Positions 643-57,211 are shown, counted from the stretch's first letter. The stretch is DNA of 64,000 nucleotides from a virus (IMGVR_UViG_3300032053_000031), one strand, 5' to 3'. Made by a program: numbers and translations. The notes: generated by a model not told the origin, from the letters alone.

Positions 643-836
643 TGAAGCGCATGAGCATGAGGGAGTCGCTCGTGATCGTCCTAACCGCTCTGAAGAAGGA
701 TGGAAAGACCTCCGGCGAAGCTTGGGACATTCTTAGCGGACTCTTTCATGAGAATCAACTATCATACAAAGAGACCGCAGAGCTCGTGGATACAGTCTTC
801 CATCCATCTCAGATGCCCCCGTATTCGAAGTCATGA
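642..836 (+). CDS. hypothetical protein
   Basis: ORF abuts the upstream stop and overlaps the next gene by 4 nt. Confidence 0.4.
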   Translation: MKRMSMRESLVIVLTALKKDGKTSGEAWDILSGLFHENQLSYKETAELVDTVFHPSQMPPYSKS

Positions 837-1108
837 ACGGGTTATGCTGTATCATTAATACAGATGTCGAGTGTAGAATCTGTAATGGAAAATTCTGTGA
901 GAACTGTTGGGTGGCAGATAAGGAGCATACCCTCGTCTTTACGGATCAGATATCTCCCTACAGATGTGGTAACGTAAGAGCCACTATGTCCTGCAATGTA
1001 GAAGGACCATACTGCATATTGAAACTCGACGACAATAATATCGGGCTTATCGAGGTCCCGAAGGGGACCTCACTCCGCGAGATCGGCAATAAGCAGAAAA
1101 GGAAATGA
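833..1108 (+). CDS. LCC-family small Cys-rich zinc-ribbon-like protein
   Basis: N-term MNGLCCIINTDVECRICNGKFCENCW; matches family pattern LCC-x7-9-CxxC-x4-CxxC. Confidence 0.65.
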   Translation: MNGLCCIINTDVECRICNGKFCENCWVADKEHTLVFTDQISPYRCGNVRATMSCNVEGPYCILKLDDNNIGLIEVPKGTSLREIGNKQKRK

Positions 1109-1359
1109 CTACACCCAATCAAAATCTTTGCTGTTCACTGAACGGCATTATGGTATGTATGTTCTGCGGACGTCGATACTGTGAGGATTGTTTGAGGGAA
1201 CTACATAAGCGAACGGACTATACACCCAAGCCAGAAGATTTCAATCATATTGTTTGCCTGTGTAATATTAGAGGAGCTAAGAGATGGATGGATCTCAACT
1301 CAAGACTTCTCACACCTAGCGGAATATATAGACCCGTTCTAAAGAAAAGGAAGAGATGA
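1105..1359 (+). CDS. LCC-family small Cys-rich protein
   Basis: N-term ...NQNLCCSLNGIMVCMFCGRRYCEDCL; 4-nt overlap with neighbours. Confidence 0.65.
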   Translation: MTTPNQNLCCSLNGIMVCMFCGRRYCEDCLRELHKRTDYTPKPEDFNHIVCLCNIRGAKRWMDLNSRLLTPSGIYRPVLKKRKR

Positions 1360-1595
1360 ACGCTTACAACCTTTGTTGTCGTATCCATACTCTTGTATAT
1401 TGTAATGTATGTAAGAATCTTCTTTGTGAGGAATGTCTTAATAAAACACATGTCAAAGATCGTCTTATGTATTGTTCGGTCCATTCTAAAGATATTAAAT
1501 GGAAGACTGGTGCACTCTATACGAGTGGCCACTACGAACTAATTCCCATTGAAGGAGAAGATCCCTCTTCACATTGGCGGACGACATATACATGA
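1356..1595 (+). CDS. LCC-family small Cys-rich protein
   Basis: MNAYNLCCRIHTLVYCNVCKNLLCEECL. Confidence 0.65.
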   Translation: MNAYNLCCRIHTLVYCNVCKNLLCEECLNKTHVKDRLMYCSVHSKDIKWKTGALYTSGHYELIPIEGEDPSSHWRTTYT

Positions 1596-1756
1596 AGCGA
1601 CTTCAACTACATAAGTTCAAGGTAAGAAAAGTAGTTATACAAGGTAAAGAGGAATCTGTCGTTGATGCTCAGTGCCTCAAGTGTGGTGTATACATCTATA
1701 CACATCAGGACGTAATAGATAATCTCTTCTGCAAGGGAAAGAGGAAAAAGAAATGA
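1574..1756 (+). CDS. hypothetical small basic protein
   Basis: Track ORF; CLKCG motif and a Lys-rich tail. Confidence 0.3.
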   Translation: MADDIYMKRLQLHKFKVRKVVIQGKEESVVDAQCLKCGVYIYTHQDVIDNLFCKGKRKKK

Positions 1757-1850
1757 CCTGTCCACGATGTAGATCCAAAGAATACTATCGAGGCCATTGC
1801 GAAGACTGCCACTTTAATGAACGTGATGAAGAGAAAGAGATAAGTAATAC

Positions 1851-2105
1851 TTGGTTCATATGACATTTAATCCAGGAGACTTTGTAGTAGTAGATAAATG
1901 TGTCTGTGAATCTTATGGATGTTATCCCACTGGTAAGGTGGGTATTTATAGAAGCATTCACAAGGACGGAGAGGTACAGGTTGACTATGGCAAACCGGGT
2001 ATATTTAATATCCGTGTAAGAAGTATCATAAGGTTGGCAACACAGGAAGAAAAGAATAAGGCTTTATTCTTCTATGCTACAACCGGATATTATAATGAAC
2101 ACTAG
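1851..2105 (+). CDS. hypothetical protein
   Basis: Track ORF with no recognisable motif. Confidence 0.4.
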   Translation: MVHMTFNPGDFVVVDKCVCESYGCYPTGKVGIYRSIHKDGEVQVDYGKPGIFNIRVRSIIRLATQEEKNKALFFYATTGYYNEH

Positions 2106-2307
2106 GCCATATGAAGGTGAGGAAGCCACATGTTAATCTCTTTCAGACACTTTCTCTTCGACCTTCTCTTCGAGGATATCATTGAGGAGAGGGACTGTAA
2201 TCTTACCGTCTGTGATAAGTCTATTCAAAAGATCCTTGCCGAGCATGAAGATAGACTAGCCGCTCTGCAGGATGAAGTAGAACAGCTTAAGAAGAGAGGG
2301 GGATAAC

Positions 2308-2845: not shown

Positions 2846-2932
2846 GGGTAGGAGGCCATACGGGAATTGGCGGCGGACTGTAAATCCGCTGGGCGAGAGC
2901 CCACGTGAGTTCGATTCTCACCCTACCCACCA
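2846..2932 (+). tRNA. tRNA-Tyr (anticodon GTA), long variable arm, CCA encoded
   Basis: Acceptor gggtagg/cctaccc; anticodon stem gcgga/tccgc with loop ctGTAaa; T-arm gtgag-ttcgatt-ctcac; ends a-cca. Confidence 0.85.
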
Positions 2933-2936
2933 ATTT

Positions 2937-3010
2937 AGGCCTGTGGTGTAATGGTAGCACAAGGGTCTTTGAAGCCCTTAGATAGAGTTCGAGTCTCTAC
3001 AGGCCTGCCA
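2937..3010 (+). tRNA. tRNA-Gln (anticodon TTG), CCA encoded
   Basis: Acceptor aggcctg/caggcct; anticodon stem agggt/gccct with loop ctTTGaa; T-arm tagag-ttcgagt-ctcta; 4 nt after tRNA-Tyr. Confidence 0.8.
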
Positions 3011-3012
3011 AT

Positions 3013-3222
3013 ATGACAATAGGATTTGGATATAGTGGTCCCGGTGATGGTCGGCCGTTTTGTGGAGACGAACATAAGGAACTCATCATTGAACAAGCTC
3101 TCCATCCTAAGTCTTACTATGAAACAATATGGGAGTGGTCGAAGCTAGCTAGTACAGAAGAGCAAGTCGCTTTGGTTATTAAACTCTTAGATGTAGATAA
3201 GATGACTAAGGAGAAACGCTAA
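3013..3222 (+). CDS. hypothetical protein
   Basis: Track ORF starting 2 nt after tRNA-Gln. Confidence 0.4.
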   Translation: MTIGFGYSGPGDGRPFCGDEHKELIIEQALHPKSYYETIWEWSKLASTEEQVALVIKLLDVDKMTKEKR

Positions 3223-3464
3223 TGATCGAGATCCTACAGTGTCCTCATGGTGGCGGCCCGCTCCATCTGTTGGTCGACCTCTGGTGGGTCTTCGTCATAT
3301 GTGTTCCAGGCTTAGGCTTATTTCTCACCAAGATGAAGATCAAAGTTCGTGACTGCTTCTGCTGTAAGGGTCACGACAAGAAGTGCTGCGATCACGAGTG
3401 TGAGAAGGTCGAGCCTAAGTGCAACTGCAATGGTGTGTGCAACCCTTGCAAGTGCAAGCATTAA
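3222..3464 (+). CDS. membrane-anchored metallothionein-like Cys-cluster protein
   Basis: Hydrophobic N-terminal helix, then CFCCKGHDKKCCDHECEKVEPKCNCNGVCNPCKCKH (15 Cys in 36 aa). Confidence 0.5.
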   Translation: MIEILQCPHGGGPLHLLVDLWWVFVICVPGLGLFLTKMKIKVRDCFCCKGHDKKCCDHECEKVEPKCNCNGVCNPCKCKH

Positions 3465-3629
3465 CGATTTGATGTGGGGTGTGTCGCGAGACACATTGCA
3501 AGACGGACTGGGCCATGAACTCCTTACGAAAACGGACCATCAATCCAAGTAGTAAGGAACTAGCGATAAGCCCATTGCGCTGGAGACATTGTTGGGGTGA
3601 TACCTGACATACTTCTCCTGCCCACATCT

Positions 3630-3704
3630 GCCCAGTTAGCTCAACGGTAGAGCACTCCCTTTACGTGGGATAGGTTGTAGGTTCAAATCCTACACTGGGC
3701 ACCA
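3630..3704 (+). tRNA. tRNA-Val (anticodon TAC), CCA encoded
   Basis: Acceptor gcccagt/actgggc; D-arm gctc-aacggta-gagc; anticodon loop ttTACgt; T-arm gtagg-ttcaaat-cctac; ends a-cca. Reading depends on the stem register; an Arg(ACG) reading is rejected. Confidence 0.7.
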
Positions 3705-4142: not shown

Positions 4143-4370
4143 ATGGAGAGTGTAGAACTAGTGGACCTTGGTTGGGTGATGGCTAGAGCTAGACGTAACC
4201 CTGAAGGAAGTATTCTATCTCTAGTATTAGTATCTCCCTCCGACGGCCAGGAGAATGGATTCGAACCAGCCCAGTCAGTATGTATATTTGGACATACCAA
4301 TGTCAAGAAGCTCTCTGACTTTCTCAACCAACTAATGCTTCTTAGCAACGTGAAAGGATCTGGGGCATGA
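4143..4370 (+). CDS. hypothetical protein
   Basis: ATG directly after the upstream stop; internal to track ORF 4080..4370. Confidence 0.35.
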   Translation: MESVELVDLGWVMARARRNPEGSILSLVLVSPSDGQENGFEPAQSVCIFGHTNVKKLSDFLNQLMLLSNVKGSGA

Positions 4371-4579
4371 GTCTCTGTTGTCAAATCAATCCTTATGTAG
4401 TCTGTTACGGATGCTTAGTACATATGTGTATGGACTGTCATCAAAAATATAGCAGGGATAATCAAGGAGGTAGACCATACCATCCTCTTTATAATATCTC
4501 AAGGTATGGAGCCGCTATCTACAAAGAGAAAAAGGGAATGAAATTTACGTACGGCATTAAAGATGGATGCATAGAATGA
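4367..4579 (+). CDS. LCC-family small Cys-rich protein
   Basis: MSLCCQINPYVVCYGCLVHMCMDCH. Confidence 0.65.
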   Translation: MSLCCQINPYVVCYGCLVHMCMDCHQKYSRDNQGGRPYHPLYNISRYGAAIYKEKKGMKFTYGIKDGCIE

Positions 4580-4773
4580 AACTCTGTTGCATGGTCAATC
4601 CTGTTGGACAGTGTAGCCATTGCAAAGGAAAGTTATGTTGGGATCATATAGTAGATAGTAATATGAGGCCTGATTGCCCTTATTGTAATTACAAGTGTAC
4701 TATATATTCTTATCCTTTACGAATTCGATCTGGATGGTATCCAGATAGACTAGAAGAAATAAATTGGTTTTAA
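4567..4773 (+). CDS. LCC-family small Cys-rich protein
   Basis: MHRMKLCCMVNPVGQCSHCKGKLCWDH. Confidence 0.65.
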   Translation: MHRMKLCCMVNPVGQCSHCKGKLCWDHIVDSNMRPDCPYCNYKCTIYSYPLRIRSGWYPDRLEEINWF

Positions 4774-5178: not shown

Positions 5179-5322
5179 ATGAAAAAGGAACAGGAAGAAA
5201 TGATGACCGTTGAGTATCTCAAAGCGTATAACATCCTCGGATACTGTGGATCGCATCCCTGGGTGAACCTTATTGCCATCGCAGTCGTCATCGGACTGAT
5301 GGTAGTTCTAAATCTGATATGA
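5179..5322 (+). CDS. small membrane protein (47 aa)
   Basis: Short ORF not in the track; AGGAGG 8 nt upstream; hydrophobic C-terminus LIAIAVVIGLMVVL. Confidence 0.3.
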   Translation: MKKEQEEMMTVEYLKAYNILGYCGSHPWVNLIAIAVVIGLMVVLNLI

Positions 5323-5528
5323 ACATAATGAAGGATGTTTGTATGTGTGGCCACGCGCGATGGTGCCACATAGACAAAGAAGGAAAGTTCATTCCTTGCA
5401 CTGAATGCAAGAAATGTTCTAAGTTCATGTTCTCCTTTCTTAAACAGAGTCCGATCATTCGGGTAGAGACTCCAGAGAAAAAGGAAGACAAATCACAGCC
5501 TTGGTGCAATCTCGGTGGAACAGAATAA
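5319..5528 (+). CDS. small Cys/His-rich zinc-ribbon-like protein
   Basis: CMCGHARWCH...CTECKKC. Confidence 0.4.
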   Translation: MNIMKDVCMCGHARWCHIDKEGKFIPCTECKKCSKFMFSFLKQSPIIRVETPEKKEDKSQPWCNLGGTE

Positions 5529-5751
5529 CCTCTGCTGTCTTATACATCCATATACTAAATGTAAATTCTGTGGTATAGGATACTGCAGCAATTGTTATCT
5601 TATTGTATGGGGAGCATCTCCCATAAAGGATGACGCTGGTTATCCTATTGATCCTCATTCGAATAACATATGGGATAAAAGAATAATGCCCTGTACTGTT
5701 AGAACGACATATATTAATAAACTTAGTCACTGGTTTGGTCCTACAAAATGA
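5515..5751 (+). CDS. LCC-family small Cys-rich protein
   Basis: MEQNNLCCLIHPYTKCKFCGIGYCSNCY. Confidence 0.65.
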   Translation: MEQNNLCCLIHPYTKCKFCGIGYCSNCYLIVWGASPIKDDAGYPIDPHSNNIWDKRIMPCTVRTTYINKLSHWFGPTK

Positions 5752-7136
5752 TAATCTCTGGGTCGCCTCTTCACAAAGTAATCGTAGCCTTACGAGAAGC
5801 TGGTGGTCTGCCTTTAGTCGTAGGTGGTGCTGTTAGAGATACCATTCTCAACAAGTCTATAAAGGACTACGACATCGAGATTCATAAGCTGAATGCGGAA
5901 CAGATAGAAAGGATTCTATCTCAGTTTGGTTCCGTAGACAAAGTGGGAGCAGCTTTCGGAGTCTTCAAGATCGCGGGATGGGATGTCGACTTTAGTGTAC
6001 CTCGTAGGGATAACAAGATAGGGAAGGGTCATAAAGGATTTGATACTGAGTGTGACCCTTTCATGGGAATCGACGAAGCAGCTAAGCGACGTGATCTTAC
6101 TATCAATTCGATGGCATATGATCCCATCGACAATAAACTCTTTGACCCATTCGGTGGTAGAGCGGACCTGGAGAAGAAGGTCTTGAGAGCGACGGATCCT
6201 AAGTCGTTTCTTGAAGACCCTCTTCGAGCTCTCCGCGCAGCACAGTTCGCTGCAAGGTTTGAGATGTGGGCTGATGTAGAGCTCACCGAACTTTGTAAGG
6301 AAGCAGCCCTCTCCGAGCTTCCAGGGGAGAGGATCCTTCCGGAGTTTGAGAAACTTCTGGTGAAGGGAAAGACACCTTCCATTGGTCTTAAGTTTATGCG
6401 TCGTGCTAATCTGTTAAGGTTCTTTCCAGAACTAGAAGTTATGGTAGGTTGTGAACAGGAGTATGAGTGGCATCCCGAAGGGGATGTATGGGATCATACT
6501 CTCTTAGTAGTAGATGCCGCTAGAGGATTAACGGATGACTTTATCGTGATGATGTCTGCACTGTGTCACGATATGGGAAAGCCGTTAACAACGAAGTTCG
6601 AAGATGGAAGAATACGTTCTTTAGGACATGAGGATGCTGGAGTAGAACCAACAAAGAAGTTTCTGGAAAGACTTCGTGCTCCAATAGACTTTACCAAAGC
6701 GGTTACTTGTTTGGTGAAGTATCATCTATCACCTCATCACTTCTATACGAACGGTGCATCTTCGAAAGCAATTCGTAGACTCGCAAGACATCTCGCAGAG
6801 GCTAGTCTCACTCTGCGGGAGATAGAAATTCTAGCGAGGTCTGATCATTATGGAAGGCGTACACCTGATGCTTGGACAGGAGAGTATCCTGCGGGCGATT
6901 GGCTTCTGGAGAAGATGAAAACGTTAGATATAACTTCTGTTCAGAAGGCAAGTAACTGCGTAGTGCTAGGACGCCACGTTCTAAAGCGACCAGGATTCAA
7001 ACCGGGAAAAATTATAGGAGAGATCTTGAGAGCTTGCCAAGAATACGAAGACGAAACAGGAGAGAAAGATCCTGATAGGATACTAGATACAGTCCTCTCA
7101 AAATTCAACTTCCCTGACCATAGAAGCGAGATATGA
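5748..7136 (+). CDS. cca: tRNA nucleotidyltransferase (CCA-adding enzyme) with HD domain
   Basis: LVVGGAVRD head-domain motif of class II polyA polymerase/CCA enzymes; RDLTINS; C-terminal HD motif (ALCHDMGK); 462 aa. Confidence 0.85.
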   Translation: MIISGSPLHKVIVALREAGGLPLVVGGAVRDTILNKSIKDYDIEIHKLNAEQIERILSQFGSVDKVGAAFGVFKIAGWDVDFSVPRRDNKIGKGHKGFDTECDPFMGIDEAAKRRDLTINSMAYDPIDNKLFDPFGGRADLEKKVLRATDPKSFLEDPLRALRAAQFAARFEMWADVELTELCKEAALSELPGERILPEFEKLLVKGKTPSIGLKFMRRANLLRFFPELEVMVGCEQEYEWHPEGDVWDHTLLVVDAARGLTDDFIVMMSALCHDMGKPLTTKFEDGRIRSLGHEDAGVEPTKKFLERLRAPIDFTKAVTCLVKYHLSPHHFYTNGASSKAIRRLARHLAEASLTLREIEILARSDHYGRRTPDAWTGEYPAGDWLLEKMKTLDITSVQKASNCVVLGRHVLKRPGFKPGKIIGEILRACQEYEDETGEKDPDRILDTVLSKFNFPDHRSEI

Positions 7137-7417
7137 GACAGCTATGTTGTTTAGTTAAAGGAGAATGGTTAGATTACTTTTGTCCAAAATGTCCATATCA
7201 TAATAAGTTGTTTTGTGGAGAACATGCACTAGGTGATAAATCATTTAAGCGTTGTCCCGCCTGCCATCGTATAATGTATTCTTCTACCACTATACTAAAT
7301 AGAAAGTACCTTTCATGTGAGGGTAATGATTGCGAGCACTGTGAATTTAATGTACCAAAGTGTCTAAGGAAATGGAGAAATGAAACGAAAAAGACTTCCA
7401 AAGAAACTAAAGGTTAG
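7133..7417 (+). CDS. LCC-family small Cys-rich protein
   Basis: MRQLCCLVKGEWLDYFCPKCPYHNKLFCGEH. Confidence 0.6.
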   Translation: MRQLCCLVKGEWLDYFCPKCPYHNKLFCGEHALGDKSFKRCPACHRIMYSSTTILNRKYLSCEGNDCEHCEFNVPKCLRKWRNETKKTSKETKG

Positions 7418-7534
7418 ACGTAGTTGGGGTAACCTTAATCCGGCAACAAGAGTTATCCAATCCAAAAAGAACTACAGCCGAGCAGCGACGCGGAGACAAG
7501 CTCGTCTCGACGCGGAAAGAGACTTCCTAGATCT

Positions 7535-7717
7535 ATGAAACCGAAGCTATGTTGTATCGTTAATCGCAATATAGATCGGGAACGCAGCTGCACTCATTGC
7601 CATGTTAGTCTCTGTAAAGACTGTGGTCTTCGTCACGTAAAGAATAGTTGGATACATTGCGATGAATGTATAGTCAAGTGCAAAGCATCCCCTTGCTTAG
7701 GAAAGAGCACGTTATAA
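7535..7717 (+). CDS. LCC-family small Cys-rich protein
   Basis: MKPKLCCIVNRNIDRERSCTHCHVSLCKDCG; paralog of 7958..8143 along its full length (WIHC[DE]ECIV). Confidence 0.65.
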   Translation: MKPKLCCIVNRNIDRERSCTHCHVSLCKDCGLRHVKNSWIHCDECIVKCKASPCLGKSTL

Positions 7718-7721
7718 ATAT

Positions 7722-7961
7722 ATGTCCCATTATATTCTTAGGACCTATAAAGGTCCTACCAAATTATGTTGTCTAGTCAATTATAAAAGAATGTGTACTT
7801 CATGCGGTCTTCGTCAGTGTCGTGAGTGTGAACATGAAGAGTACACGCTGCACGATGGGACGGACTCATACCGCTTTATATGGGATGTAAGAACTAAGGA
7901 AACGAATACGACTCCAGAATACTATAGGGTATGTGACGGTGAATTAACCTTCTTAAAATGA
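7722..7961 (+). CDS. LCC-family small Cys-rich protein
   Basis: ...GPTKLCCLVNYKRMCTSCGLRQCRECEH. Confidence 0.6.
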   Translation: MSHYILRTYKGPTKLCCLVNYKRMCTSCGLRQCRECEHEEYTLHDGTDSYRFIWDVRTKETNTTPEYYRVCDGELTFLK

Positions 7962-8143
7962 AACAGAAACTGTGTTGTATATTAAACTGTAATGAGGGTA
8001 TAAGGTGTACCTGCGTTCATTGCAAATCAAAGTTGTGTTATGATTGTGGCAGTCAACATGCAAGGGATAACTGGATTCATTGTGAAGAATGTATTGTTAT
8101 ATGTAATACCAAAATTGTATGCTCAGGAATGTTACCAATCTAG
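7958..8143 (+). CDS. LCC-family small Cys-rich protein
   Basis: MKQKLCCILNCNEGIRCTCVHCKSKLCYDCG. Confidence 0.65.
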   Translation: MKQKLCCILNCNEGIRCTCVHCKSKLCYDCGSQHARDNWIHCEECIVICNTKIVCSGMLPI

Positions 8144-8154
8144 GTAGATAAACC

Positions 8155-8475
8155 ATGAAACTCTGTTGCCAGATACACCCGACCATATGGTGCTTTGATT
8201 GTTATAAAGTACTGTGCGGAGATTGTTCCTATCAACATAAGAGACATACTTTTAAGTATGGAGTAGCCTATATTGCTACTCATACTGGTAAGAGCCACCT
8301 CAAGAGGTGGGTTGCTTTCAATAAGATTCTAACCGATTTGCAGGTAGAAGACTATATAGATTTTGGATGGGTAGATACACATGGTGGCCCAGGGAAAGCT
8401 TTTAAGGATGTAGATCTATCTATCAAAAGGTCGAGGTCATGGACATTAGTATCTTACTTGGATAAGCAATGGTAA
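8155..8475 (+). CDS. LCC-family small Cys-rich protein
   Basis: MKLCCQIHPTIWCFDCYKVLCGDCS. Confidence 0.65.
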   Translation: MKLCCQIHPTIWCFDCYKVLCGDCSYQHKRHTFKYGVAYIATHTGKSHLKRWVAFNKILTDLQVEDYIDFGWVDTHGGPGKAFKDVDLSIKRSRSWTLVSYLDKQW

Positions 8476-8774
8476 TCAATACAGATCCCTCGGTAATGTG
8501 TGAATGCTATAAGTGTAAATCAAAAAGGAAGAAGACATCAACATCTAAGCTTTGCTGTATTGTAAATAGTGCATTCAGGTGTCCTAGATGTGCCAGAAGG
8601 TTCTGTATAGATTGTTTATACTCGGAACATACAATTCCTAATATAATTACAGGATGTTCTTTCGATGTAACTCTATATTTTTGTTGGAAATGTTTCCGTG
8701 AATATCAAGACACAACATCTGCTAGAGAGCTCTGCTTGCACGAAAGTCTACGAGCATTCCTCCACAACCCATGA
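8469..8774 (+). CDS. LCC-family small Cys-rich protein
   Basis: LCC motif at aa 27: ...TSKLCCIVNSAFRCPRCARRFCIDCL. True start uncertain. Confidence 0.55.
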   Translation: MVINTDPSVMCECYKCKSKRKKTSTSKLCCIVNSAFRCPRCARRFCIDCLYSEHTIPNIITGCSFDVTLYFCWKCFREYQDTTSARELCLHESLRAFLHNP

Positions 8775-9157
8775 AGAAAACAATTCTCCTAACAGGTTTG
8801 TTACTTCTAACGCCTTCAGAGTTAGGACATGCCTCGAGGATAAAATCTAGAATAGGATTAGCACATATCACTAATTACTCACATGAGGAGAGTAGTAGAC
8901 TAACCGCTTCAGGACATATTCTAAAGGATGAAGATAGCGGAAAGGTATGTGCTGTGGGAAGAGATTGGTGGAAGAAGATAATACATCCAAATGATATTCT
9001 CATTATAGGTAATGAAATTGTTTGTGTGGTGAAAGATACTATGGCACCACGTTTTACAAGACGAGTAGATGTATATCGCTCTAGCCGGCAGGAAGCTTTG
9101 ACATTAGGTATTACACAAAAAGACGTTATAATCATTGAGCAAATTGAACAACAATGA
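8771..9157 (+). CDS. secreted protein (signal-peptide-like N-terminus); possible 3D/DPBB-like domain
   Basis: MKKTILLTGLLLLTPSELGHA hydrophobic leader. The domain call is weak. Confidence 0.4.
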   Translation: MKKTILLTGLLLLTPSELGHASRIKSRIGLAHITNYSHEESSRLTASGHILKDEDSGKVCAVGRDWWKKIIHPNDILIIGNEIVCVVKDTMAPRFTRRVDVYRSSRQEALTLGITQKDVIIIEQIEQQ

Positions 9158-9405
9158 AACCTTGTCTGGCCTGTCTAATCAGGCCGAAACTCAAGTGTGT
9201 GAGATGTGGGAGACCCTGGTGTAAAGAATGTCTTAAGATTAGGACAGACAGCACTACAAACCCTCACACAGATGTAGAATGGGAATGTCTCCCATTAAAT
9301 AGGTGTTATGCTTCCATCCGAAGAGATGGTCACTTCTCTGGTAACTTACAGATTGAGATGATATCAGATAACGAAGCCTTTTTGAAGTGGGTACGATTAC
9401 TCTAG
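9154..9405 (+). CDS. LCC-family (CLxC variant) small Cys-rich protein
   Basis: MKPCLACLIRPKLKCVRCGRPWCKECL; close paralog of 42528 and 41368. Confidence 0.6.
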   Translation: MKPCLACLIRPKLKCVRCGRPWCKECLKIRTDSTTNPHTDVEWECLPLNRCYASIRRDGHFSGNLQIEMISDNEAFLKWVRLL

Positions 9406-10504: not shown

Positions 10505-10741
10505 ATGACACAACAACTCTGTTGTCTGGTAAAAAGGACAGCCGTGTGTTGCAAATGTAGGAAAGCCTTTTGTCTTGAGTGTGCCCTTACAGAAAAAGTT
10601 TATGTCTGTTATAAGTGTGGTAAGGGATATTGCAATAGCTGTTGGATGAAAGATTCAACCACTGGACATGAAAGTTGTCCCGCGCAGGGGTTCTTGAGTG
10701 ATAGACATTCCTATTATATCATTATGGGAGGAGATGTATAA
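10505..10741 (+). CDS. LCC-family small Cys-rich protein
   Basis: MTQQLCCLVKRTAVCCKCRKAFCLECA. Confidence 0.65.
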   Translation: MTQQLCCLVKRTAVCCKCRKAFCLECALTEKVYVCYKCGKGYCNSCWMKDSTTGHESCPAQGFLSDRHSYYIIMGGDV

Positions 10742-13992: not shown

Positions 13993-14153
13993 TTAATAAA
14001 CAGATGGAATGTGTCTACTGTAGTAGAGTCTTTTGTTCTTCATGTCGTCGTGAAATGATATTTAATGGTTGGGATAAATATACATGCCCCAGCCTCAAAG
14101 CTCAGCGGATATTAAAGAAACCAGTACACCGAATCAGATATCTATTCCTATGA
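13965..14153 (+). CDS. LCC-family small Cys-rich protein
   Basis: MSKPKLCCLVNKQMECVYCSRVFCSSCR. Confidence 0.6.
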   Translation: MSKPKLCCLVNKQMECVYCSRVFCSSCRREMIFNGWDKYTCPSLKAQRILKKPVHRIRYLFL

Positions 14154-47449: not shown

Positions 47450-48007
47450 ATGAGTATTGAAACCACCTTAACTTTATTTCCTGAGATACTGAAGAGGCTG
47501 TGGAAAGAATCGCCTCTGCGTCAGGGGCAGGTTTTAAAACTACATCCAGGACAGGCCTCTATCATAGATATACCTTCTCCAGTTTCATATCATGGAATTT
47601 CAAATTCTGACCGGAGACATGTTGAATCCTACGAAATATCTGCACAGGTACACTCTCATTATCTTTTCAAAAGAGAGGAGATAGTAGATATATTAGTGGA
47701 AAAACTAATAAAGGCCGAGAAGGATTACTTCTATAAAATACTGTTCGGAAGTAATGAAATACTTTTTGTTCCCGATAAAAAAGTCCAACAAACTAAAGCC
47801 CTTTTTGAGGGACTCAGAAGGGATGTAGCAGTAATTCCCGAGTCCTATAAAGACTGTGCGGCACCATTATATCCAAAGACAATTTGTCTCGTAAGAAATG
47901 ACTATGAATTAATGGTCACAGGAAATATAGTAGTACTATGGGAAGTCGTTGGTATTGCTATTCAACATTCAGAATGGCATCGAAATATTCCTTTTGTTGT
48001 AAAATGA
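47450..48007 (+). CDS. hypothetical protein
   Basis: Internal Met of track ORF 47432..48007, just after the rtcB stop. Confidence 0.45.
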   Translation: MSIETTLTLFPEILKRLWKESPLRQGQVLKLHPGQASIIDIPSPVSYHGISNSDRRHVESYEISAQVHSHYLFKREEIVDILVEKLIKAEKDYFYKILFGSNEILFVPDKKVQQTKALFEGLRRDVAVIPESYKDCAAPLYPKTICLVRNDYELMVTGNIVVLWEVVGIAIQHSEWHRNIPFVVK

Positions 48008-48228
48008 AAAACAAACTCTGCTGTATCGTAAAAACGAGAAAGTATTGTGACAACTGTAGATTGCTTCTTTGCGAAGAGCACGGCAAAAACATATCATGGA
48101 GCTGTCCTAATTGTTCAAAGAAGACAATGCTCTACTATCTTCCAAAGGACGGATGGTATCCTGGTAGTAATAGTTATTCCAGAGAATTTAAACCCCACCT
48201 CGCAGTGCAGAGCTTTAGCTTATGTTAG
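48004..48228 (+). CDS. LCC-family small Cys-rich protein
   Basis: MKNKLCCIVKTRKYCDNCRLLLCEEHG; ATGA overlap. Confidence 0.6.
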   Translation: MKNKLCCIVKTRKYCDNCRLLLCEEHGKNISWSCPNCSKKTMLYYLPKDGWYPGSNSYSREFKPHLAVQSFSLC

Positions 48229-49846: not shown

Positions 49847-50707
49847 ATGAAAGTCCCTTCCATAGGTGCTGATCCGGAATTCTCCTTTAAGAGTAAAGGT
49901 GGGAGAATGATTCATGCGGATTCTATTATCCAACGAAACACTGGTCATGAATATTTCGGGACTGATGGATGCAGTGCGATAGCTGAGATAAGACCTCTTC
50001 CAGCTAAAGAGCCTAGACAGCTAGTGGATAATATCCGAAGTGTTCTTCAGGTAGGTCTGTCTGACTATCCTGCGCTTAGGGATGTTTACTGGAAGGCGGG
50101 AAGCTGCACGGGCAATGAATATGCCCTAGGTGGACATATTCATTTCGGAACACGTGGACTAAATGTAAAAGGCATCGCCCCTGTTGTGAAGCATCTCGAT
50201 ACTTACGTAGCTCAGATCATATCTCTTCTGGAAGATGAAAACGAGAGTAGCAATCGCAGATATGGCGATTATGGTGGTTTGAACGATTATCGTACAAACG
50301 ATCATGGATTTGAATGGCGCACTCCTTCAAGTTGGTTAACATCCCCGCGTGTTGCAGAAGGAGTCTTATGTCTCAGCCATGCATGCGTCGTCGATTCCAT
50401 AAATGGTAGGATGAAGAGACTTCCAGAAAGATTAAGTCTTCCTTACGACGACGACTGGAATGAAATAGTAAGGGAAGACCAGAAAAGAAAGGTTCCTGGT
50501 CTGAAGAAGGCTATTAAGAAGTTTAGACTATACAAGAAGTATCAGGAGCCTATTGAGTTCATCTTCAAACTCATTAATGAAAATAAGACGTGGTTCCCAA
50601 AAGGTGACATGAAAGAAGCTTGGGGATTAGTTCCTAAGAAAGAACATCGCCTCGATAGACTCCAGATAGTAAATGTAAAGGCAATCTGGGATGGAGTATC
50701 CAAATGA
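49847..50707 (+). CDS. hypothetical protein; possible amidoligase (GCS2-like) family
   Basis: N-terminal IGADPEFSF loosely resembles the GxExEF motif of phage amidoligases; this is a weak call. Confidence 0.25.
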   Translation: MKVPSIGADPEFSFKSKGGRMIHADSIIQRNTGHEYFGTDGCSAIAEIRPLPAKEPRQLVDNIRSVLQVGLSDYPALRDVYWKAGSCTGNEYALGGHIHFGTRGLNVKGIAPVVKHLDTYVAQIISLLEDENESSNRRYGDYGGLNDYRTNDHGFEWRTPSSWLTSPRVAEGVLCLSHACVVDSINGRMKRLPERLSLPYDDDWNEIVREDQKRKVPGLKKAIKKFRLYKKYQEPIEFIFKLINENKTWFPKGDMKEAWGLVPKKEHRLDRLQIVNVKAIWDGVSK

Positions 50708-51269: not shown

Positions 51270-52070
51270 ATGTGTAGGTTAATAGCATTACCGCCTGGAA
51301 CAACTAAGAAAGAAGCTCTTGAAGTCGTTAAAGATTTCTACATAGGCAACGATGATGGTACAGGAAGTGTCTATGCAAAGGATGGTCAGTTTGTCGTTAA
51401 TAAGTGGCCACTGAGCTTCAAAGAAGTAATCAAGAAAAGGCTGCCTCTTGTTGATCATATGCCTTATGAAGGATGGACTTTGATTCACGTGAGAGCGGCA
51501 TCCCACGGAAAGAATAATTACGAAAATACTCATCCGATCGTTCGTGGGAAGTGGGCTGTGTGTCATAATGGAATCTTCCATGAACATGCTCCTGTTAGGG
51601 CTGCTCTTAATTTAGTAACAGAGTTCAAGGGGCAAACTGATACAGAAGTGGCTGCTGCACTCTGGCAGCTTGCGGGGCCCAAAGTCTTTATGAAGACCGT
51701 GTCAACTTCAGGAGTCTTTCTCTTCTTGAAGAATAATGGACAGCTGCATGTTGTTTGTACAAGCGGAGATCTTCTCTTTAAGGCAAGGGAAAATAGTTTC
51801 ACGTTCGCTTCGGAATTTCCTCTTGATTATAAGAAGACAACCCGAGTGGATGAAGGTTATTTCAAGATGAGTAAAAAGGGTAAGGTTTTAAAGTCCTTCT
51901 TTGAGAAGAGCAAAACCTATTCTTACAGCTCTGCTAAGAGGAGTATTCAATCTTATTCTAAGTCCTTCAAGTCTTACTATTCTAAGAATTGGGACTCAGA
52001 AGATGAATGTAGCGATGACTCCTGGTACTATGAGGACGGCTTCCTAAAGAGGAAGGGAACTCACAAATGA
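51270..52070 (+). CDS. class II glutamine amidotransferase-like Ntn hydrolase
   Basis: Cys at position 2 (MCRLIALPPG), typical of the N-terminal Cys nucleophile in GAT-II/YafJ-like proteins. Confidence 0.45.
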   Translation: MCRLIALPPGTTKKEALEVVKDFYIGNDDGTGSVYAKDGQFVVNKWPLSFKEVIKKRLPLVDHMPYEGWTLIHVRAASHGKNNYENTHPIVRGKWAVCHNGIFHEHAPVRAALNLVTEFKGQTDTEVAAALWQLAGPKVFMKTVSTSGVFLFLKNNGQLHVVCTSGDLLFKARENSFTFASEFPLDYKKTTRVDEGYFKMSKKGKVLKSFFEKSKTYSYSSAKRSIQSYSKSFKSYYSKNWDSEDECSDDSWYYEDGFLKRKGTHK

Positions 52071-52979: not shown

Positions 52980-53354
52980 CTATAGAGGTAGCGGCAGCGG
53001 CTGATTGAGTTGCTGACCGCTACCTCTCTTGTAGCTTCGTATGCGGTGACAATTTGAACAAACAAGGTCACACTTCTTAGTCTCTTTAAGAATAGTTCTC
53101 TTGGTTCTCTTGGAGAGTTCAGTAGGATTGAACTTCTTGGCTTTGCCATTTCTATGGTCGAAGTCCATTACATAATAAGGATAGCTCATACCACAATCCA
53201 TACAAGGTTTATCTTTAAGGGACCGATAAAAGCGTTTGTGATTCTCAATACGAATCTTACGACGTTTTGCCGACTTACGATATGGTATATGTTCTTTCAT
53301 ATCTTTGTAATCAAACCATAATAAAGGTCCTTGGGGGGTTCGTGGAGAACCCAC
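52980..53354 (-). CDS. HNH endonuclease (free-standing, opposite strand)
   Basis: CMDCGMSYPYYVMDFDHRNGKAKKFNPTELSKR...CSNCH HNH/zinc-finger motif; one of only two minus-strand genes. Confidence 0.7.
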   Translation of the reverse strand: MGSPRTPQGPLLWFDYKDMKEHIPYRKSAKRRKIRIENHKRFYRSLKDKPCMDCGMSYPYYVMDFDHRNGKAKKFNPTELSKRTKRTILKETKKCDLVCSNCHRIRSYKRGSGQQLNQPLPLPL

Positions 53355-53756: not shown

Positions 53757-54425
53757 ATGAAGATTGTAGCGATTGCTGATATCCATTGTCAGTTTGACAA
53801 GATAACAATTCCTCCCTGCGACTTATTAATAAATGCAGGAGATCTTACGTGGGAGGGAACATTACAACAGATCGCCCAATTTAATTATTGGGCTGGTACC
53901 TTACAGCATGTTAAACATTTTGTAACAATCGCAGGCAATCATGACTTCTTATTTCAGGATCAACCTAGTCTAGCTAGGAGCTTAATAACTAATTGTGACT
54001 ACATTGAGGACCAGACTATCATAGTAAATGGAATCAAGATATATGGAGCACCGTGGACTCCTAGGTTCCACGACTGGGCATTTAATGCAGATAGAGGTGA
54101 AGTAATTAAGAAACATTGGGATAAAATTCCTGAGGGGATAGATATACTCTTAACACATGGTCCTGCATATGGATACGGCGACAAAGTAATTCGTGGAAGT
54201 GGTGAACGTTGGGAAGATGGAGAAGACTTCGCTATCGGAGTAGAATATCTAGGATGTAAGGATCTGTATGATGCGCTCGTAAGAGTAAAGCCTAAGTATC
54301 ATATCTTTGGGCATATACACCAAGGTTTCGGCATCTGGAGAAATGACTTCACAACATTCATCAATGCTTCCGTATGTACTAAGGAATATAATCCTATCAA
54401 CCCTCCGATAATGTTTGAAATATGA
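53757..54425 (+). CDS. calcineurin-like metallophosphoesterase
   Basis: Motifs DIHCQ (D-x-H), GDLTWEG (GD), GNHD, GHIH; AGGAG RBS. Confidence 0.8.
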   Translation: MKIVAIADIHCQFDKITIPPCDLLINAGDLTWEGTLQQIAQFNYWAGTLQHVKHFVTIAGNHDFLFQDQPSLARSLITNCDYIEDQTIIVNGIKIYGAPWTPRFHDWAFNADRGEVIKKHWDKIPEGIDILLTHGPAYGYGDKVIRGSGERWEDGEDFAIGVEYLGCKDLYDALVRVKPKYHIFGHIHQGFGIWRNDFTTFINASVCTKEYNPINPPIMFEI

Positions 54426-54655
54426 AACTCTGTTGCTTAGTTAAAGGGTCCTGTCTTTGTTATCACTGTGGTTGGAAAATATGCGAGGAGTGTTACTCTC
54501 AAATGTTCAAGCAGAGTAAACGTTCTTATTCTAGATTAGTATTTGTCTTGGACGATAGTCATTTTGAATATAGTTATAAGTGTAAAGAGAGATATGAACT
54601 TCAAAGTAAAAGCGCTGCAAGAAGGAAAGACAATAGTTTCAAGAGAACCAGGTAA
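54422..54655 (+). CDS. LCC-family small Cys-rich protein
   Basis: MKLCCLVKGSCLCYHCGWKICEECY. Confidence 0.65.
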   Translation: MKLCCLVKGSCLCYHCGWKICEECYSQMFKQSKRSYSRLVFVLDDSHFEYSYKCKERYELQSKSAARRKDNSFKRTR

Positions 54656-54887
54656 CTCAATGACTCCGGTTCTCAAGTCACGACAACCTGTACGAATAGC
54701 TCCAGCCACTTGGGATCAAGTAGATGTGGGTGATATAGTCTACTGTAAGGTTGGTGGATATTATTACACCCATATTGTTAAAGCTAAAGGCTTGAGAGGT
54801 TGTCAAATAGGTAATAATCATGGGCATATTAACGGATGGACTAAATATGTCTATGGTAAAGTAATTGAAATACTTCCTAACATATGA
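54594..54887 (+). CDS. S24/S26-like peptidase domain protein (tentative)
   Basis: EPGNSMTPVL...VDVGDIVYCKV resembles the LexA/signal-peptidase Ser motif. The start overlaps the upstream LCC gene, so the boundaries are uncertain. Confidence 0.3.
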   Translation: MNFKVKALQEGKTIVSREPGNSMTPVLKSRQPVRIAPATWDQVDVGDIVYCKVGGYYYTHIVKAKGLRGCQIGNNHGHINGWTKYVYGKVIEILPNI

Positions 54888-55066
54888 AGAAACATAGAGA
54901 TAAGATTCCTTTTTGTTGTATGGTTAAGGGAGATGTACCTTGTGTATACTGTGGTTTTAAAATATGTAAAGGTTGTCGAGAGGAAGATAATAGTGAACAT
55001 TACTGGGGAGGTATGTGTAGACTTCGACCAGAGGAAGATCTTAAACGACAGCTAGATCAGATATGA
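54884..55066 (+). CDS. LCC-family (FCC) small Cys-rich protein
   Basis: ...KIPFCCMVKGDVPCVYCGFKICKGCR. Confidence 0.55.
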   Translation: MKKHRDKIPFCCMVKGDVPCVYCGFKICKGCREEDNSEHYWGGMCRLRPEEDLKRQLDQI

Positions 55067-55371
55067 AACAAAAACTTTGTTGTCAAATTCATAAAGACTT
55101 GATTTGCTGTACATGTGGATTAGTGATATGTGAAGATTGTTACAACTTGTGTGGACCCGCTACTACCAATAAAGCAGCTTTCCATCTGGAGATTCGATCT
55201 CAGGAGAGATGGTGTCCTCAATGCCTGGAAAAAAGAAAATTAACAGTCAACTGGTTGGATTACAATTACTGTAAGGGATGTTGGACAGGTAAGATATTCG
55301 GGTGTTTTAAATTCCCATTAAAAGACAAAGATCGGCCTAAGTGGGCCAAGAAGAAAAAAACATGGAAGTAA
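55063..55371 (+). CDS. LCC-family small Cys-rich protein
   Basis: MKQKLCCQIHKDLICCTCGLVICEDCY. Confidence 0.65.
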   Translation: MKQKLCCQIHKDLICCTCGLVICEDCYNLCGPATTNKAAFHLEIRSQERWCPQCLEKRKLTVNWLDYNYCKGCWTGKIFGCFKFPLKDKDRPKWAKKKKTWK

Positions 55372-55943
55372 TTGATTCTAATTTCTGTTATCCTCCAAAG
55401 CCTTTATATGTACCACCCAGTTCATCTATATTTGATGAATTAGATTCTAACGAAGAGTGGGTGGCTGAAGTAAAAAAGAATGGTTGGCGCTGTATGATTA
55501 GGGTAACAGTTAACGGAGATATAATTTTATGGACAAGAAGAAAGACAGTGGAGAGAAGTCCATTACCGAATCTTCGCATCGAATTGAAAAAGTTATCACT
55601 GCCACAGGATACTATTTTAGATGGAGAACTTCTTGAACATCGAGGGATGACAAAAGAAACGATTATGATATGGGGGATGTTTCGTTGGGCTGGCAAATGG
55701 ACTAACACCATTCCTTATAAAGAAATTCGCGAACGGATTGAAAAGATTGTTCCAGAAAACAACCCTTATATTATAAAGCCCAAATTCTGTTTCACAGGAA
55801 AGAAGAAGTTCTACTATGATGTCTTAAAAGAAAGTGAAGAGAATGAAGGTATTGTGATAAAGAAATTAGCTGCACCGGTTCCTTTTTCTTGGAATGATTC
55901 TGAGAAGATACGCACATGGATCAAAATTAAAGAGAATATGTAA
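55362..55943 (+). CDS. minimal ligase-like nucleotidyltransferase (adenylyltransferase domain only, about 193 aa)
   Basis: Motif I KKNGWR (Kx[DN]GxR); motif III ILDGELL; motif IV EGIVIK; motif V WIKIK. No OB domain. Confidence 0.5.
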   Translation: MEVIDSNFCYPPKPLYVPPSSSIFDELDSNEEWVAEVKKNGWRCMIRVTVNGDIILWTRRKTVERSPLPNLRIELKKLSLPQDTILDGELLEHRGMTKETIMIWGMFRWAGKWTNTIPYKEIRERIEKIVPENNPYIIKPKFCFTGKKKFYYDVLKESEENEGIVIKKLAAPVPFSWNDSEKIRTWIKIKENM

Positions 55944-56034
55944 TGTTATAGACCGGGTAATTTAAGATGGGCAACAGCTAAAGAACAGGCACATAATCGA
56001 CGTAGGAGAGTTAAACCGTCAATATAGGTGAAAC

Positions 56035-56268
56035 ATGAAACAGATGAGTCCTGAGATGGCACAAATAGTACAAGCGTTCGCAACGGCTGATTTTCGTTTC
56101 GAGATTCTTATTGCAGCCATAATCGAAACACTTCTGGAAAAGAAGGATGTAGCTGGTCAACCCTTCCTTACGCGGGAAGAGCTTGATAAGAAAGCCGAGG
56201 AGATTAAGAATAAGCTTCTCGAAGAGGCGCGCAAGCAGTCAAACATTATTATTCCTGGTCAACCATAA
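56035..56268 (+). CDS. hypothetical protein
   Basis: Track ORF. Confidence 0.4.
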   Translation: MKQMSPEMAQIVQAFATADFRFEILIAAIIETLLEKKDVAGQPFLTREELDKKAEEIKNKLLEEARKQSNIIIPGQP

Positions 56269-56368
56269 TGACCAAAAGGAAAAAGAAGGAGAAGGTAAAA
56301 CCAAAGTTGCTAGTGGAACAAAAATTCCACCCCATTGAATGGATGAAAAGAATACTTGGTAAATTCTA

Positions 56369-56776
56369 ATGACAAATATATTTGTCTATGGAACATTACG
56401 AAAGGGAGGTCCTTTACACAGATACTTTGAAGACAAGGAGATATCTCCTATTGGTATGTTTCATACTCATCCCATATATACATTATACGACTGCGGGTGT
56501 CCATGTCTAGCGGAGGGTGGTACTACTAGTGTAGTCGGAGAGATATATAAGACGGACTTAGAAGATGTAATGGATGTTCATTCAATGGAGCTATATGCGG
56601 GCTATAAGTTTAAACCCGTTGCGCTTGCAGACTTCGAAGAGCTTACCTATGCATACTTTCAAAGTCCAAAAGAATATGGATTAACTCCAATAGTAATAGA
56701 AAGCGGCGACTATATAGCATATAGATATGAAGATAAAGATAGAGAAGCATACAAAGAACGACCTGATAACGGATAA
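56369..56776 (+). CDS. gamma-glutamyl cyclotransferase (AIG2/GGCT)-like protein
   Basis: N-terminal IFVYGTLRKGGPLHRYF matches the GGCT-fold YGTL motif. Confidence 0.45.
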   Translation: MTNIFVYGTLRKGGPLHRYFEDKEISPIGMFHTHPIYTLYDCGCPCLAEGGTTSVVGEIYKTDLEDVMDVHSMELYAGYKFKPVALADFEELTYAYFQSPKEYGLTPIVIESGDYIAYRYEDKDREAYKERPDNG

Positions 56777-57002
56777 AGACTTATTTCAGGTTGGAGCTCC
56801 CTATCAAATTATCTCTGGCGAAGACACAGGTAAAATCTTTACATTATCTAAGATCTACTGGGATGAAAAGGATAAGGCCTATATCTTAGACTTTGAGGGA
56901 GAACATCTTGTGAATGCTAACTTCGCCGATTCCTTTATCAAAAAAGAAAGCGAAGCGAACCTAATAAGCTGTCCACATTGTAAGAAATGGATTTGCAGAT
57001 GA
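56727..57002 (+). CDS. hypothetical protein
   Basis: Track ORF; C-terminal CPHCKKWIC. Confidence 0.35.
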   Translation: MKIKIEKHTKNDLITDKDLFQVGAPYQIISGEDTGKIFTLSKIYWDEKDKAYILDFEGEHLVNANFADSFIKKESEANLISCPHCKKWICR

Positions 57003-57211
57003 ATCGAAAGCTCTGTTGTTTAGTAGCTGCTTACTGTATTTGTCCAGCTTGTAGATTTAGAATGTGTTATCCCTGCTTTGAAACTCATGTAAATGGCGGC
57101 GCTGAAAAGTGGGGTGAAATAAATAACAATGGGCTGTCACGAATGGCTATGATTTGTCCCGAGTGTGAAGTTCCTGTAGCGTGGCTTCAATCGGATTATG
57201 ATCGATTCTAG
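56987..57211 (+). CDS. LCC-family small Cys-rich protein
   Basis: MDLQMNRKLCCLVAAYCICPACRFRMCYPCF. Confidence 0.65.
   Translation: MDLQMNRKLCCLVAAYCICPACRFRMCYPCFETHVNGGAEKWGEINNNGLSRMAMICPECEVPVAWLQSDYDRF

Follow-up and report, generated by a model that had tools for sequence, protein, structure and literature searches.

A family of about 70 small, putative two-zinc proteins with B-box/RING-like features in a large uncultivated phage

The expansion of a small zinc-binding protein into tens of paralogs has a precedent among large phages. In Bacillus phage G, a lineage-specific expansion of a zinc ribbon to ~35 copies was called unprecedented, and its products were suggested to act as transcription factors or structural DNA-binding proteins, although their function is unknown (Iyer et al. 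2021, PMC7824862). Our search of the literature on phage B-box or cysteine-rich expansions found nothing relevant beyond this case. The stretch of DNA analyzed here, 64,000 nucleotides (nt) of the viral sequence IMGVR_UViG_3300032053_000031 (hereafter, the window), encodes about 70 small Cys-rich proteins that we call the LCC family. As in phage G, a large phage carries tens of paralogs of a small zinc-binding protein. In contrast to phage G, however, the LCC family has about twice as many copies and is common to a whole clade of uncultivated phages, and while phage G gp32 (YP_009015343.1, 117 aa) has a single four-Cys ribbon, the LCC-family proteins would carry a two-zinc module. Comparison of the LCC family with gp32 by hhalign gave a probability of 2% over 10 aligned columns, and as such the two are not homologous. 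Our own reading of the sequences and predicted structures is that the LCC family is a previously undescribed family of the B-box/RING-like cross-brace class.

The recurrence of the motif is striking in its strand bias. In a six-frame translation of the window, the strict regular expression LCC[LIMVQSRTA][VILM][NHK] matched 48 times in the plus-strand frames and not once in the minus-strand frames. At the DNA level, the back-translated pattern L-C-C-x-[LIVMF]-x5-C-x2-C-x4-C-x2-C retrieved 35 matches, all on the plus strand, with none found in 100 dinucleotide-preserving shuffles. A hidden Markov model (HMM) seeded on the 48 regular-expression matches, iterated once, and run against all six-frame open reading frames (ORFs) assigned 66 ORFs to the family, every one of them on the plus strand, with one divergent ORF (24310-24528) and one possibly degenerate ORF (32972-33220) in addition. 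Taking the nearest in-frame start as the first codon gives products of 57-110 aa (median 75.5), and the first Cys lies no more than 12 residues from that start in 58 of the 66. The summed length of the family genes is 15,513 nt, or 24% of the window, and a 4-nt ATGA-type overlap joins 15 neighboring pairs of them. These results bear out the original prediction in its count of about 70 paralogs, in its estimate that they occupy a quarter of the window, in its description of tandem arrays with ATGA overlaps, and in its subgroups (PCC/FCC, CL[AIVS]C, GDGTDLCC, LKEKRLCC, and MNCxxC...GW[FY]HDEC), all of which exist.

The codons used at the invariant positions indicate the level at which the motif is maintained. 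The invariant Cys residues are encoded by TGT in 195 instances and by TGC in 65, and the invariant Leu is encoded by five different codons. When the window is compared to related phages at the nucleotide level, core genes align at 65-77%, whereas the family genes do not align. Since synonymous codons vary at invariant residues and the motif persists where the DNA no longer aligns, conservation is at the level of the protein, and selection evidently acts on the protein at the ligand positions.

The shared N-terminal module reads L-C-C-x-[VLI]-[N/H/K]-P ... C-x2-C-x4-C-x2-[C/H] and places six metal-ligand positions inside the first ~27 residues: CC (or CxxC), a spacer of seven, CxxC, a spacer of four, and Cxx[C/H]. 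Among the 60 members that fit a simple regular expression, exactly seven residues separate the second Cys of LCC from the next Cys in 50, and the C-x2-C, x4, C-x2-[C/H] spacing is present in all 60, the sixth ligand being C in 49 and H in 11. The pooled alignment, in which homologues from the protein library and from other contigs join those of the window to make 529 unique sequences, gives the opening columns as L 96%, C 92%, C 97%, [LVI], [VLI], N 67%/H 10%/K 7%, and P 62%, and the four downstream ligand columns as 100, 100, 100, and 98% ([C/H] at the last). In ~5% of members, C-x2-C replaces x-L-C-C, with the second Cys being common to both forms. As a result, the Asn/His/Lys position would be no consistent ligand. 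The conserved non-ligand positions (L, [VLI], N-P, and W) are hydrophobic or structural, which would suit a scaffold better than an active or binding site common to all members.

Beyond the module, the tails are diverse but evidently constrained. At least two further Cys/His residues are present in 464 of 467 tails, where the background frequency in other proteins of the window predicts ~178 tails with fewer than two. A tail motif, C-x6-16-G-H-[YFW], recurs in 42 of the 529 homologues, and the subfamily with C...GH[YFW] tails, A3, has exactly eight invariant ligand columns (C6 C7 C15 C18 C23 C26 C35 H48). Eight ligands in four pairs are the signature of a two-zinc finger, and we infer that the six N-terminal and two tail ligands bind two zinc ions in a cross-brace like that of B-box and RING fingers. 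Compared with the original prediction, then, the motif stands but its variable spacing does not, the module being more rigid than was stated, and the C-terminal halves are diverse as described without being simply hypervariable, as they keep a ligand pair and recurrent motifs.

No member reached the threshold of any Pfam, PHROG, or NCBIfam family when 66 members were scanned, in keeping with the expectation that the family has no name. The only Pfam families to recur below threshold (E <=0.1) were ANCHR-like_BBOX, in 11 of the 66 members, and zf-B_box, in 5, making 16 members in all. For zf-B_box (PF00643), the best member scored 20.6 bits and the consensus 10-15 bits, short of the gathering cut-off of 24.1 bits; for ANCHR-like_BBOX (PF22586), with a cut-off of 27 bits that was likewise not reached, the best member had an E-value of 0.0088 and the consensus of the CxxC form scored 18 bits. 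PHROGs yielded eight weak and unrelated single-member matches, and NCBIfam yielded three weak single-member matches. A profile search of PDB sequences retrieved weak matches to ZFYVE19/ANCHR, HIT1 (E 0.057), the TIF1-beta B-box, and a cellulose-synthase (CesA) RING.

A HMMER search of 1.84 billion representative proteins returned 278 clusters at E <=0.001. Among the 150 best of these, only one protein was not of the small LCC or CxxC type: P0029, a 404-aa metagenomic protein in which Pfam identifies five near-identical B-box repeats with low-complexity linkers between them. All the others of the 150 are 57-172 aa long and carry the motif mostly at or near the N-terminus. Aligned by hhalign, the family and the B-box repeats of P0029 match in the same register with a probability of 63% and an E-value of 7e-5, the spacing between the first and second ligand pairs being one residue shorter in the LCC family.

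Structure prediction with AlphaFold2 (AF2) gave, for one member, a knuckle, a beta-hairpin, and a helix, with a predicted local distance difference test score (pLDDT) of 85-87 for residues 1-30. When supplied with a subfamily alignment, AF2 modeled member 16219 at a pLDDT of 79-90 over residues 1-50, with a strand of the tail joining the sheet as its third. Foldseek found no significant match in the PDB for either model. The non-significant top 50 for the subfamily model are nearly all RING, U-box, or B-box structures, and the non-significant matches of the first model are RING, AN1, MYND, and TFIIH p44. The indications from sequence, profile-profile, and fold comparisons are weak but consistent, and they favor the B-box/RING cross-brace class.

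B-boxes are typically domains within larger eukaryotic proteins, whereas the LCC-family proteins are stand-alone and phage-encoded, with the finger at the very N-terminus. The ligand pattern nevertheless agrees with the B-box class, which has eight Cys/His in four pairs (here six N-terminal and at least two in the tail) and a central C-x2-C-x4-5-C-x2-C with the first pair 7-10 residues upstream; the family departs from it in that this first pair is CC in 92%. Specifically, the LCC family shares with PF00643 and PF22586 a central C-x2-C-x4-C-x2-C, a first pair 7-8 residues upstream, a last Cys/His pair downstream, and eight ligands for two zinc ions. It differs in that an adjacent CC replaces the first CxxC knuckle in ~92% of members and in that the last ligand pair has no fixed position. 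The CxxC form may keep the ancestral first knuckle, with the LCC form being a derivative in which the first ligand has moved beside the second. With RING, U-box, HIT, MYND, and AN1 fingers, the family shares a predicted core of zinc knuckle, beta-hairpin, and helix, but there is no evidence of E2 binding or of a ubiquitin-like system in the window. Of the zinc modules suggested in the original prediction, the treble-clef/cross-brace kind is the one that fits six ligands plus at least two in the tail, the nearest class being B-box/RING-like; the zinc ribbon is not upheld, nor is a binuclear cluster of the Gal4 type. The Gal4-type Zn2Cys6 cluster (C-x2-C-x6-C-x5-12-C-x2-C-x6-8-C) has six Cys only and was rejected, given that its spacing differs and two further ligands are required here; Pfam Zn_clus matched none of the 66 members.

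The window matches a 117.6-kb metagenome contig in ENA as well as shorter contigs from other samples, and two further members lie just past the window on the ENA contig. The gene calls on that contig have nothing at window positions 7417-8155 (L001 3670-4408), even though members 7535, 7722, and 7958 are located there. Because automatic gene finders miss part of the members in this way, protein databases under-count the LCC family.

Searches with a strict DNA pattern found three IMG/VR contigs (210, 54, and 27.6 kb) and 78 metagenome stretches, and found no match in 185,579 bacterial and archaeal species genomes (one genome per species). A relaxed pattern searched against the species genomes gave only chance matches among the 120 matches listed, and a first DNA pattern, KLCCxVNP, had returned mostly chance contigs. 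Four pattern matches within 2 kb at positions 5700-7600 of CAWIXE010000003.1 (L104), a 517-kb contig of a bacterial metagenome-assembled genome, resembled a family cluster but were rejected as a low-complexity tandem repeat that is Cys/Leu/Arg-rich in one frame. Against GenBank phages, megablast with 12 kb of the window found no match and tblastn with one member found chance matches only (E >2). A word-indexed protein search, queried once with the alignment and once with a GDGTD member, retrieved only self or near-self matches.

In the loci found with the strict pattern, the HMM assigned 506 ORFs to the family; they occur about once per kb and share the strand of their neighbors. On the 210-kb relative, ~69 kb of contig contains at least 53 unique members, and the 54-kb contig has 37 members in 31.7 kb. 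The longer family members contain no known fused Pfam domain. From these searches, the LCC family is rare and limited to a clade of metagenomic large phages.

The copies are old. The closest paralog pair in the window (7535/7958) is 53% identical, the median identity to the best paralog is 39%, and the best paralog is an adjoining gene in only 8 of 66 cases; because the paralogs have diverged and the best one is rarely a neighbor, the expansion would not be a recent burst. Comparison with related phages gave full-length identities of 45-78% for core proteins, whereas the best matches of family members are 30-55% identical, mostly within the zinc module only; a few subgroups, such as GDGTDLCC, can be recognized across phages. 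As identities to the relatives are lower than for core genes, the family diverges or turns over faster than its surroundings. Old copies, fast divergence, and difference between related phages fit the pattern of an arms-race repertoire.

With a fixed scaffold and a variable remainder, many old copies, restriction to one clade, fast divergence, and an auxiliary-gene context, the LCC family suggests a set of small binding modules. We propose that the ~70 predicted two-zinc cross-brace mini-proteins constitute a repertoire of variable binding modules, most likely directed against host proteins or host defense, and we give this proposal about an even chance of being right. The mini-proteins would be made during infection as a set, the fixed zinc scaffold of each would present its variable C-terminal surface, and each would recognize a different partner. 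The partners would most likely be host proteins or defense components, serving host takeover or counter-defense, and less likely nucleic acids.

Several observations weigh against this proposal. Adjacent Cys residues are unusual as a ligand pair. The members have a mean net charge of +3.7 (range -3 to +16), and such a mean is also compatible with nucleic-acid binding. The fetched DNA contained only 4 gene pairs with a divergence suitable for estimating the ratio of nonsynonymous to synonymous substitution rates (dN/dS). Finally, a Shine-Dalgarno-like motif lies upstream of 29% of members, compared to 51% of other genes and 24.5% of random positions; with a frequency this near to random, the translation levels of the members are uncertain. 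The low frequency may mean that translation of the members starts by coupling or in another unusual way, or that their expression is low. Despite the scarcity of Shine-Dalgarno-like motifs, many members are coupled to the preceding gene via an ATGA overlap. A scan for sigma-70 promoters and terminators showed no enrichment.

The strongest competitor to a repertoire directed at host proteins is that the proteins are nucleic-acid-binding factors, whether as a set of specific regulators of transcription or translation or as abundant DNA-binding proteins with a structural role, which we consider possible but clearly less probable. Treble-clef and cross-brace fingers often bind nucleic acids, the members are basic on average and reach +16, their genes lie among RNA-repair and replication genes, and the same reading was offered for the phage G expansion (PMC7824862). 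On the other hand, the charge of members extends down to -3 with no conserved basic surface, the phage G ribbon is not a homologue, and seventy different regulators would be very many for one phage. B-box-like modules, moreover, are mainly protein-binding.

A targeted-degradation library is an improbable alternative, drawn by analogy with eukaryotic RING and B-box receptors: the mini-proteins might serve the phage's ClpP and AAA+ ATPase as adaptors or as substrate receptors, delivering host proteins to them. Genes for ClpP and an AAA ATPase belong to this block and have members as immediate neighbors on either side (41368, 41666, 42528, and 44706), and ClpX is known to bind adaptors and substrates through an N-terminal zinc domain. 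At about one member per kb throughout the block, however, adjacency to ClpP is expected by chance, and no ClpP-docking or adaptor motif was identified in the members.

We regard it as quite improbable that the proteins are packaged in the virion or injected, or are some other structural or accessory component. Several large phages do package small basic proteins, but the LCC genes lie in a nucleic-acid-metabolism and auxiliary block, the window has no capsid, portal, or tail genes, and seventy different packaged species would be unprecedented.

That the mini-proteins are substrates of a radical S-adenosylmethionine (SAM) modification system, as the original prediction had also suggested, is not supported, and we consider it very improbable. 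Under this explanation they would be precursors like those of ribosomally synthesized and post-translationally modified peptides (RiPPs), with the N-terminus as the leader for the radical SAM enzymes (26848-28227 and 33379-34221) and the variable C-terminus as the core. The family does resemble multi-precursor systems such as the prochlorosins (ProcA) in having many paralogs with a conserved N-terminal and a variable C-terminal part, and the two radical SAM genes have members nearby. Unlike a leader, however, the conserved part is a predicted folded metal module with six ligands to which the supposed core must add two more, and no family of dedicated maturases can be recognized. The similarity of the two radical SAM proteins to many families is limited to the generic N-terminal core; scores are 19-55 bits where the cut-offs lie at 130-650, and neither protein reaches a SPASM or twitch maturase family or any other recognized peptide-modifying radical SAM family. 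The members are spread over 57 kb at uniform density instead of clustering near the radical SAM genes, and neither a leader-cleavage motif nor a recognition-element protein was seen.

Last, an ORF-reading artefact, in which non-coding repeats or a DNA-level element translate by chance to LCC...CxxC, and which the original prediction had named as its own possible undoing, could draw on the scarce Shine-Dalgarno-like motifs and on the members skipped by gene callers at 7417-8155, but it is effectively refuted by the codon and homologue evidence: the matches all fall on one strand, in frames that stay open for 57-110 codons; invariant residues are encoded by freely varying synonymous codons; more than 500 homologues on other contigs have retained these residues although they are only 30-55% identical; and the protein motif is kept between relatives whose DNA does not align.

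The window is best explained as part of the non-structural (auxiliary or early) gene block of an uncultivated large phage, represented by the 117.6-kb contig and with the 210-kb contig as a relative. The neighbors of the LCC genes (the latter listed in Table 1) are of the kind usual in such a block of large phages and encode a CCA-adding enzyme, RtcB, two RNA ligases, two DNA-ligase-like proteins, Thg1, ClpP, AAA+ ATPases, a MoxR-type ATPase with a DUF2201 metallopeptidase/VWA protein, a phiEco32-type COOH-NH2 ligase with an amidotransferase, an SPFH protein, and the two radical SAM proteins. Several of these form an RNA-repair/tRNA toolkit (2846-3704, 31086-31156; 5748-7136; 35535-36719; 42745-43755; 46212-47447; 62333-63091), which consists of four tRNA genes (Tyr, Gln, Val, and Thr), the CCA-adding enzyme, a T4 Rnl1-like RNA ligase, a second RNA ligase, RtcB, and a Thg1-like guanylyltransferase. 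An RNA ligase lies between ClpP (41830-42471, +) and a classical-clade AAA ATPase (43757-44731, +), with family members flanking; the best matches of the ATPase are to the proteasome-activating, FtsH, and Cdc48 families, with scores far below the cut-offs. The phiEco32-type COOH-NH2 ligase and a class-II glutamine amidotransferase adjoin one another (49847-50707 and 51270-52070, +), a pair that elsewhere has been linked to peptide or metabolite amidation. Both radical SAM genes are on the plus strand, and the product of the first has an N-terminal extension of ~190 aa. The sole convincing minus-strand genes are two HNH-type endonuclease-like ORFs (52980-53354 and 63518-63964), the second of which carries the call HNH_3 on the ENA contig. 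Apart from these genes the block runs in one direction, and the two ORFs are probably mobile homing endonucleases that inserted into it.

Zinc-binding mini-proteins are, in general, plentiful in this phage. Several small ORFs on the plus strand that are Cys-rich and have CxxC...CxxC ribbons lie outside the LCC family (266-418, 400-642, 5319-5528, 13801-13992, 20835-21257, 34576-34791, and 60971-61204), and one of these is called a DksA/TraR-type finger on the ENA contig. An 80-aa ORF at 3222-3464 (+), likewise not of the LCC family, combines a hydrophobic N-terminal half with a C-terminus that is very rich in Cys and resembles a metallothionein (CFCCKGHDKKCCDHECEKVEPKCNCNGVCNPCKCKH). Two other small paralog pairs are present on the plus strand, 37311-37844/37845-38330 (28% identity, E 7e-11) and 40708-41253/48255-48770 (26%, E 9e-10), and with these two further diverged pairs the phage keeps other old duplicates as well.

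Table 1. Genes of the LCC family in the window. E-values are from the final HMM search unless otherwise stated.
Feature	Position	Strand	Basis
Member, MNGLCCIINT...	833-1108	+	E 3e-15
Member, NLCCSLNG	1105-1359	+	E 1e-11; ATGA overlap with 833-1108
Member, NLCCRIHT	1356-1595	+	E 2e-10
Member, MSLCCQINP	4367-4579	+	E 6e-14
Member, MKLCCMVNP, last ligand His	4576-4773	+	E 1e-10
Member, NLCCLIHP	5515-5751	+	E 9e-14
Divergent member with insert, paralog of 44706	7133-7417	+	E 0.018; seed HMM E 1.4e-7
Member, closest paralog pair with 7958 (53% identity)	7535-7717	+	HMM and paralog comparison
Member, KLCCLVNY	7722-7961	+	E 6e-12
Member, closest paralog pair with 7535	7958-8143	+	E 2e-7
Member, MKLCCQIHP, best Pfam zf-B_box score	8155-8475	+	zf-B_box E 4.9e-4, 20.6 bits (cut-off 24.1)
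Member, additional N-terminal CxC..CxC	8496-8774	+	E 1e-11
CxxC form (CLAC), tail C...GHF	9154-9405	+	E 6e-14; in subfamily A3
Member with second partial repeat	10505-10741	+	Two HMM stretches
CxxC form (CLIC) with insert, GWVHEDC tail	10926-11159	+	E 3e-8
CxxC form (CLVC)	12358-12570	+	E 2e-9
Member, KLCCLVKA	12567-12764	+	E 2e-15
Divergent MNCxxC...GWFHDEC subgroup	12761-13006	+	E 0.0035; clusters with 28796, 30857
Member, first spacer 13 residues	13027-13308	+	E 1e-7
Member, 10 extra Cys in tail	13321-13608	+	HMM and ligand count
Member	13601-13804	+	E 1e-13
Member	13965-14153	+	E 4e-13
Member	14204-14401	+	E 3e-12
Member, tail C...GRHFW	14398-14604	+	E 3e-13; in subfamily A3
Member	14601-14819	+	E 7e-14
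PCC form	15661-15861	+	E 5e-13
Member, first knuckle altered	15864-16058	+	E 2e-9
Member, knuckle shortened (CC-GKLC)	16028-16222	+	E 3e-7
Member behind better structure model	16219-16428	+	AF2 mean pLDDT 76.8, residues 1-50 at 79-90
Member	16425-16643	+	E 2e-14
Member, tail C...GGHY	19147-19410	+	E 2e-14; in subfamily A3
Member	19703-19906	+	E 3e-10
Member	19910-20206	+	E 8e-12
Probable divergent member, PCC-x7-CxxC-x5-CxxH	24310-24528	+	Read directly; HMM only E 0.62
CxxC form (CLIC)	24586-24828	+	E 2e-7
Member, tail C...GHW	25036-25251	+	E 8e-12
Member	25480-25668	+	E 4e-11
Member	25869-26111	+	E 8e-10
Member (CLCC)	26104-26427	+	E 2e-12
Member	26554-26805	+	E 1e-10
Member	28558-28806	+	E 2e-14
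CxxC form (CLVC), HKEC tail	28796-29026	+	E 2e-8; clusters with 12761, 30857
Member	30304-30510	+	E 3e-12
Divergent MNCxxC...GWYHDEC subgroup	30857-31084	+	E 0.0019
Member, KLCCIVNP	31165-31377	+	E 3e-15
Divergent member	31382-31609	+	E 2e-4
Member, MKKKW start	32790-32975	+	E 3e-12
Possible degenerate member, internal LCC, middle knuckle lost	32972-33220	+	Read directly; HMM E 0.059
Member	34397-34597	+	E 3e-8
Member	35106-35345	+	E 2e-9
GDGTDLCC subgroup, also in 210-kb relative	35342-35599	+	E 9e-14
GDGTDLCC subgroup	36716-37000	+	E 2e-11
Member	37000-37311	+	E 4e-13
LKEKRLCC subgroup	38342-38515	+	E 8e-11
Member	38766-39005	+	E 5e-13
GDGTDLCC subgroup, 94%-identical variant P0003	40488-40757	+	E 4e-10
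CxxC form (CLSC)	41368-41589	+	E 1e-14
LKEKRLCC subgroup	41666-41854	+	E 1e-11
CxxC form (CLAC)	42528-42743	+	E 2e-16
Divergent member with insert, paralog of 7133	44706-44969	+	E 3e-4
Member, tail C...GHW	45168-45380	+	E 3e-14
Member	45401-45628	+	E 9e-11
CxxC form (CLVC)	45950-46282	+	E 2e-9
Member	47974-48228	+	E 3e-10
Member	54422-54655	+	E 4e-11
FCC form	54884-55066	+	E 1e-11
Member	55063-55371	+	E 1e-9
Member, last in window	56999-57211	+	E 3e-11

We classify the LCC family as a new family within the known cross-brace class and, after phage G, as the second example of an expanded zinc mini-protein in large phages, this time with more copies and across a whole clade. A bolder form of our proposal, which we think unlikely, is a programmable library of 50-70 or more B-box/RING-like mini-proteins, each directed against a different host or defense protein, acting as stoichiometric inhibitors or as substrate receptors for ClpP/AAA+. 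Such a library, if real, would be a prokaryotic-virus counterpart of the eukaryotic TRIM/RING receptor repertoires and the largest anti-host effector family in any phage. Should the repertoire of binding modules itself prove correct, it would be the largest single-family expansion reported in a phage, at about twice the ~35 copies of phage G, and the known two-zinc scaffolds would gain one that is new, compact, and stand-alone and in which two adjacent Cys residues form an unusual ligand pair. The family could then be a rich source of inhibitors of bacterial proteins and defense systems and of small engineerable zinc scaffolds, and a quarter of the accessory genome of some large phages would seem to be given over to one diversified repertoire of binding modules.

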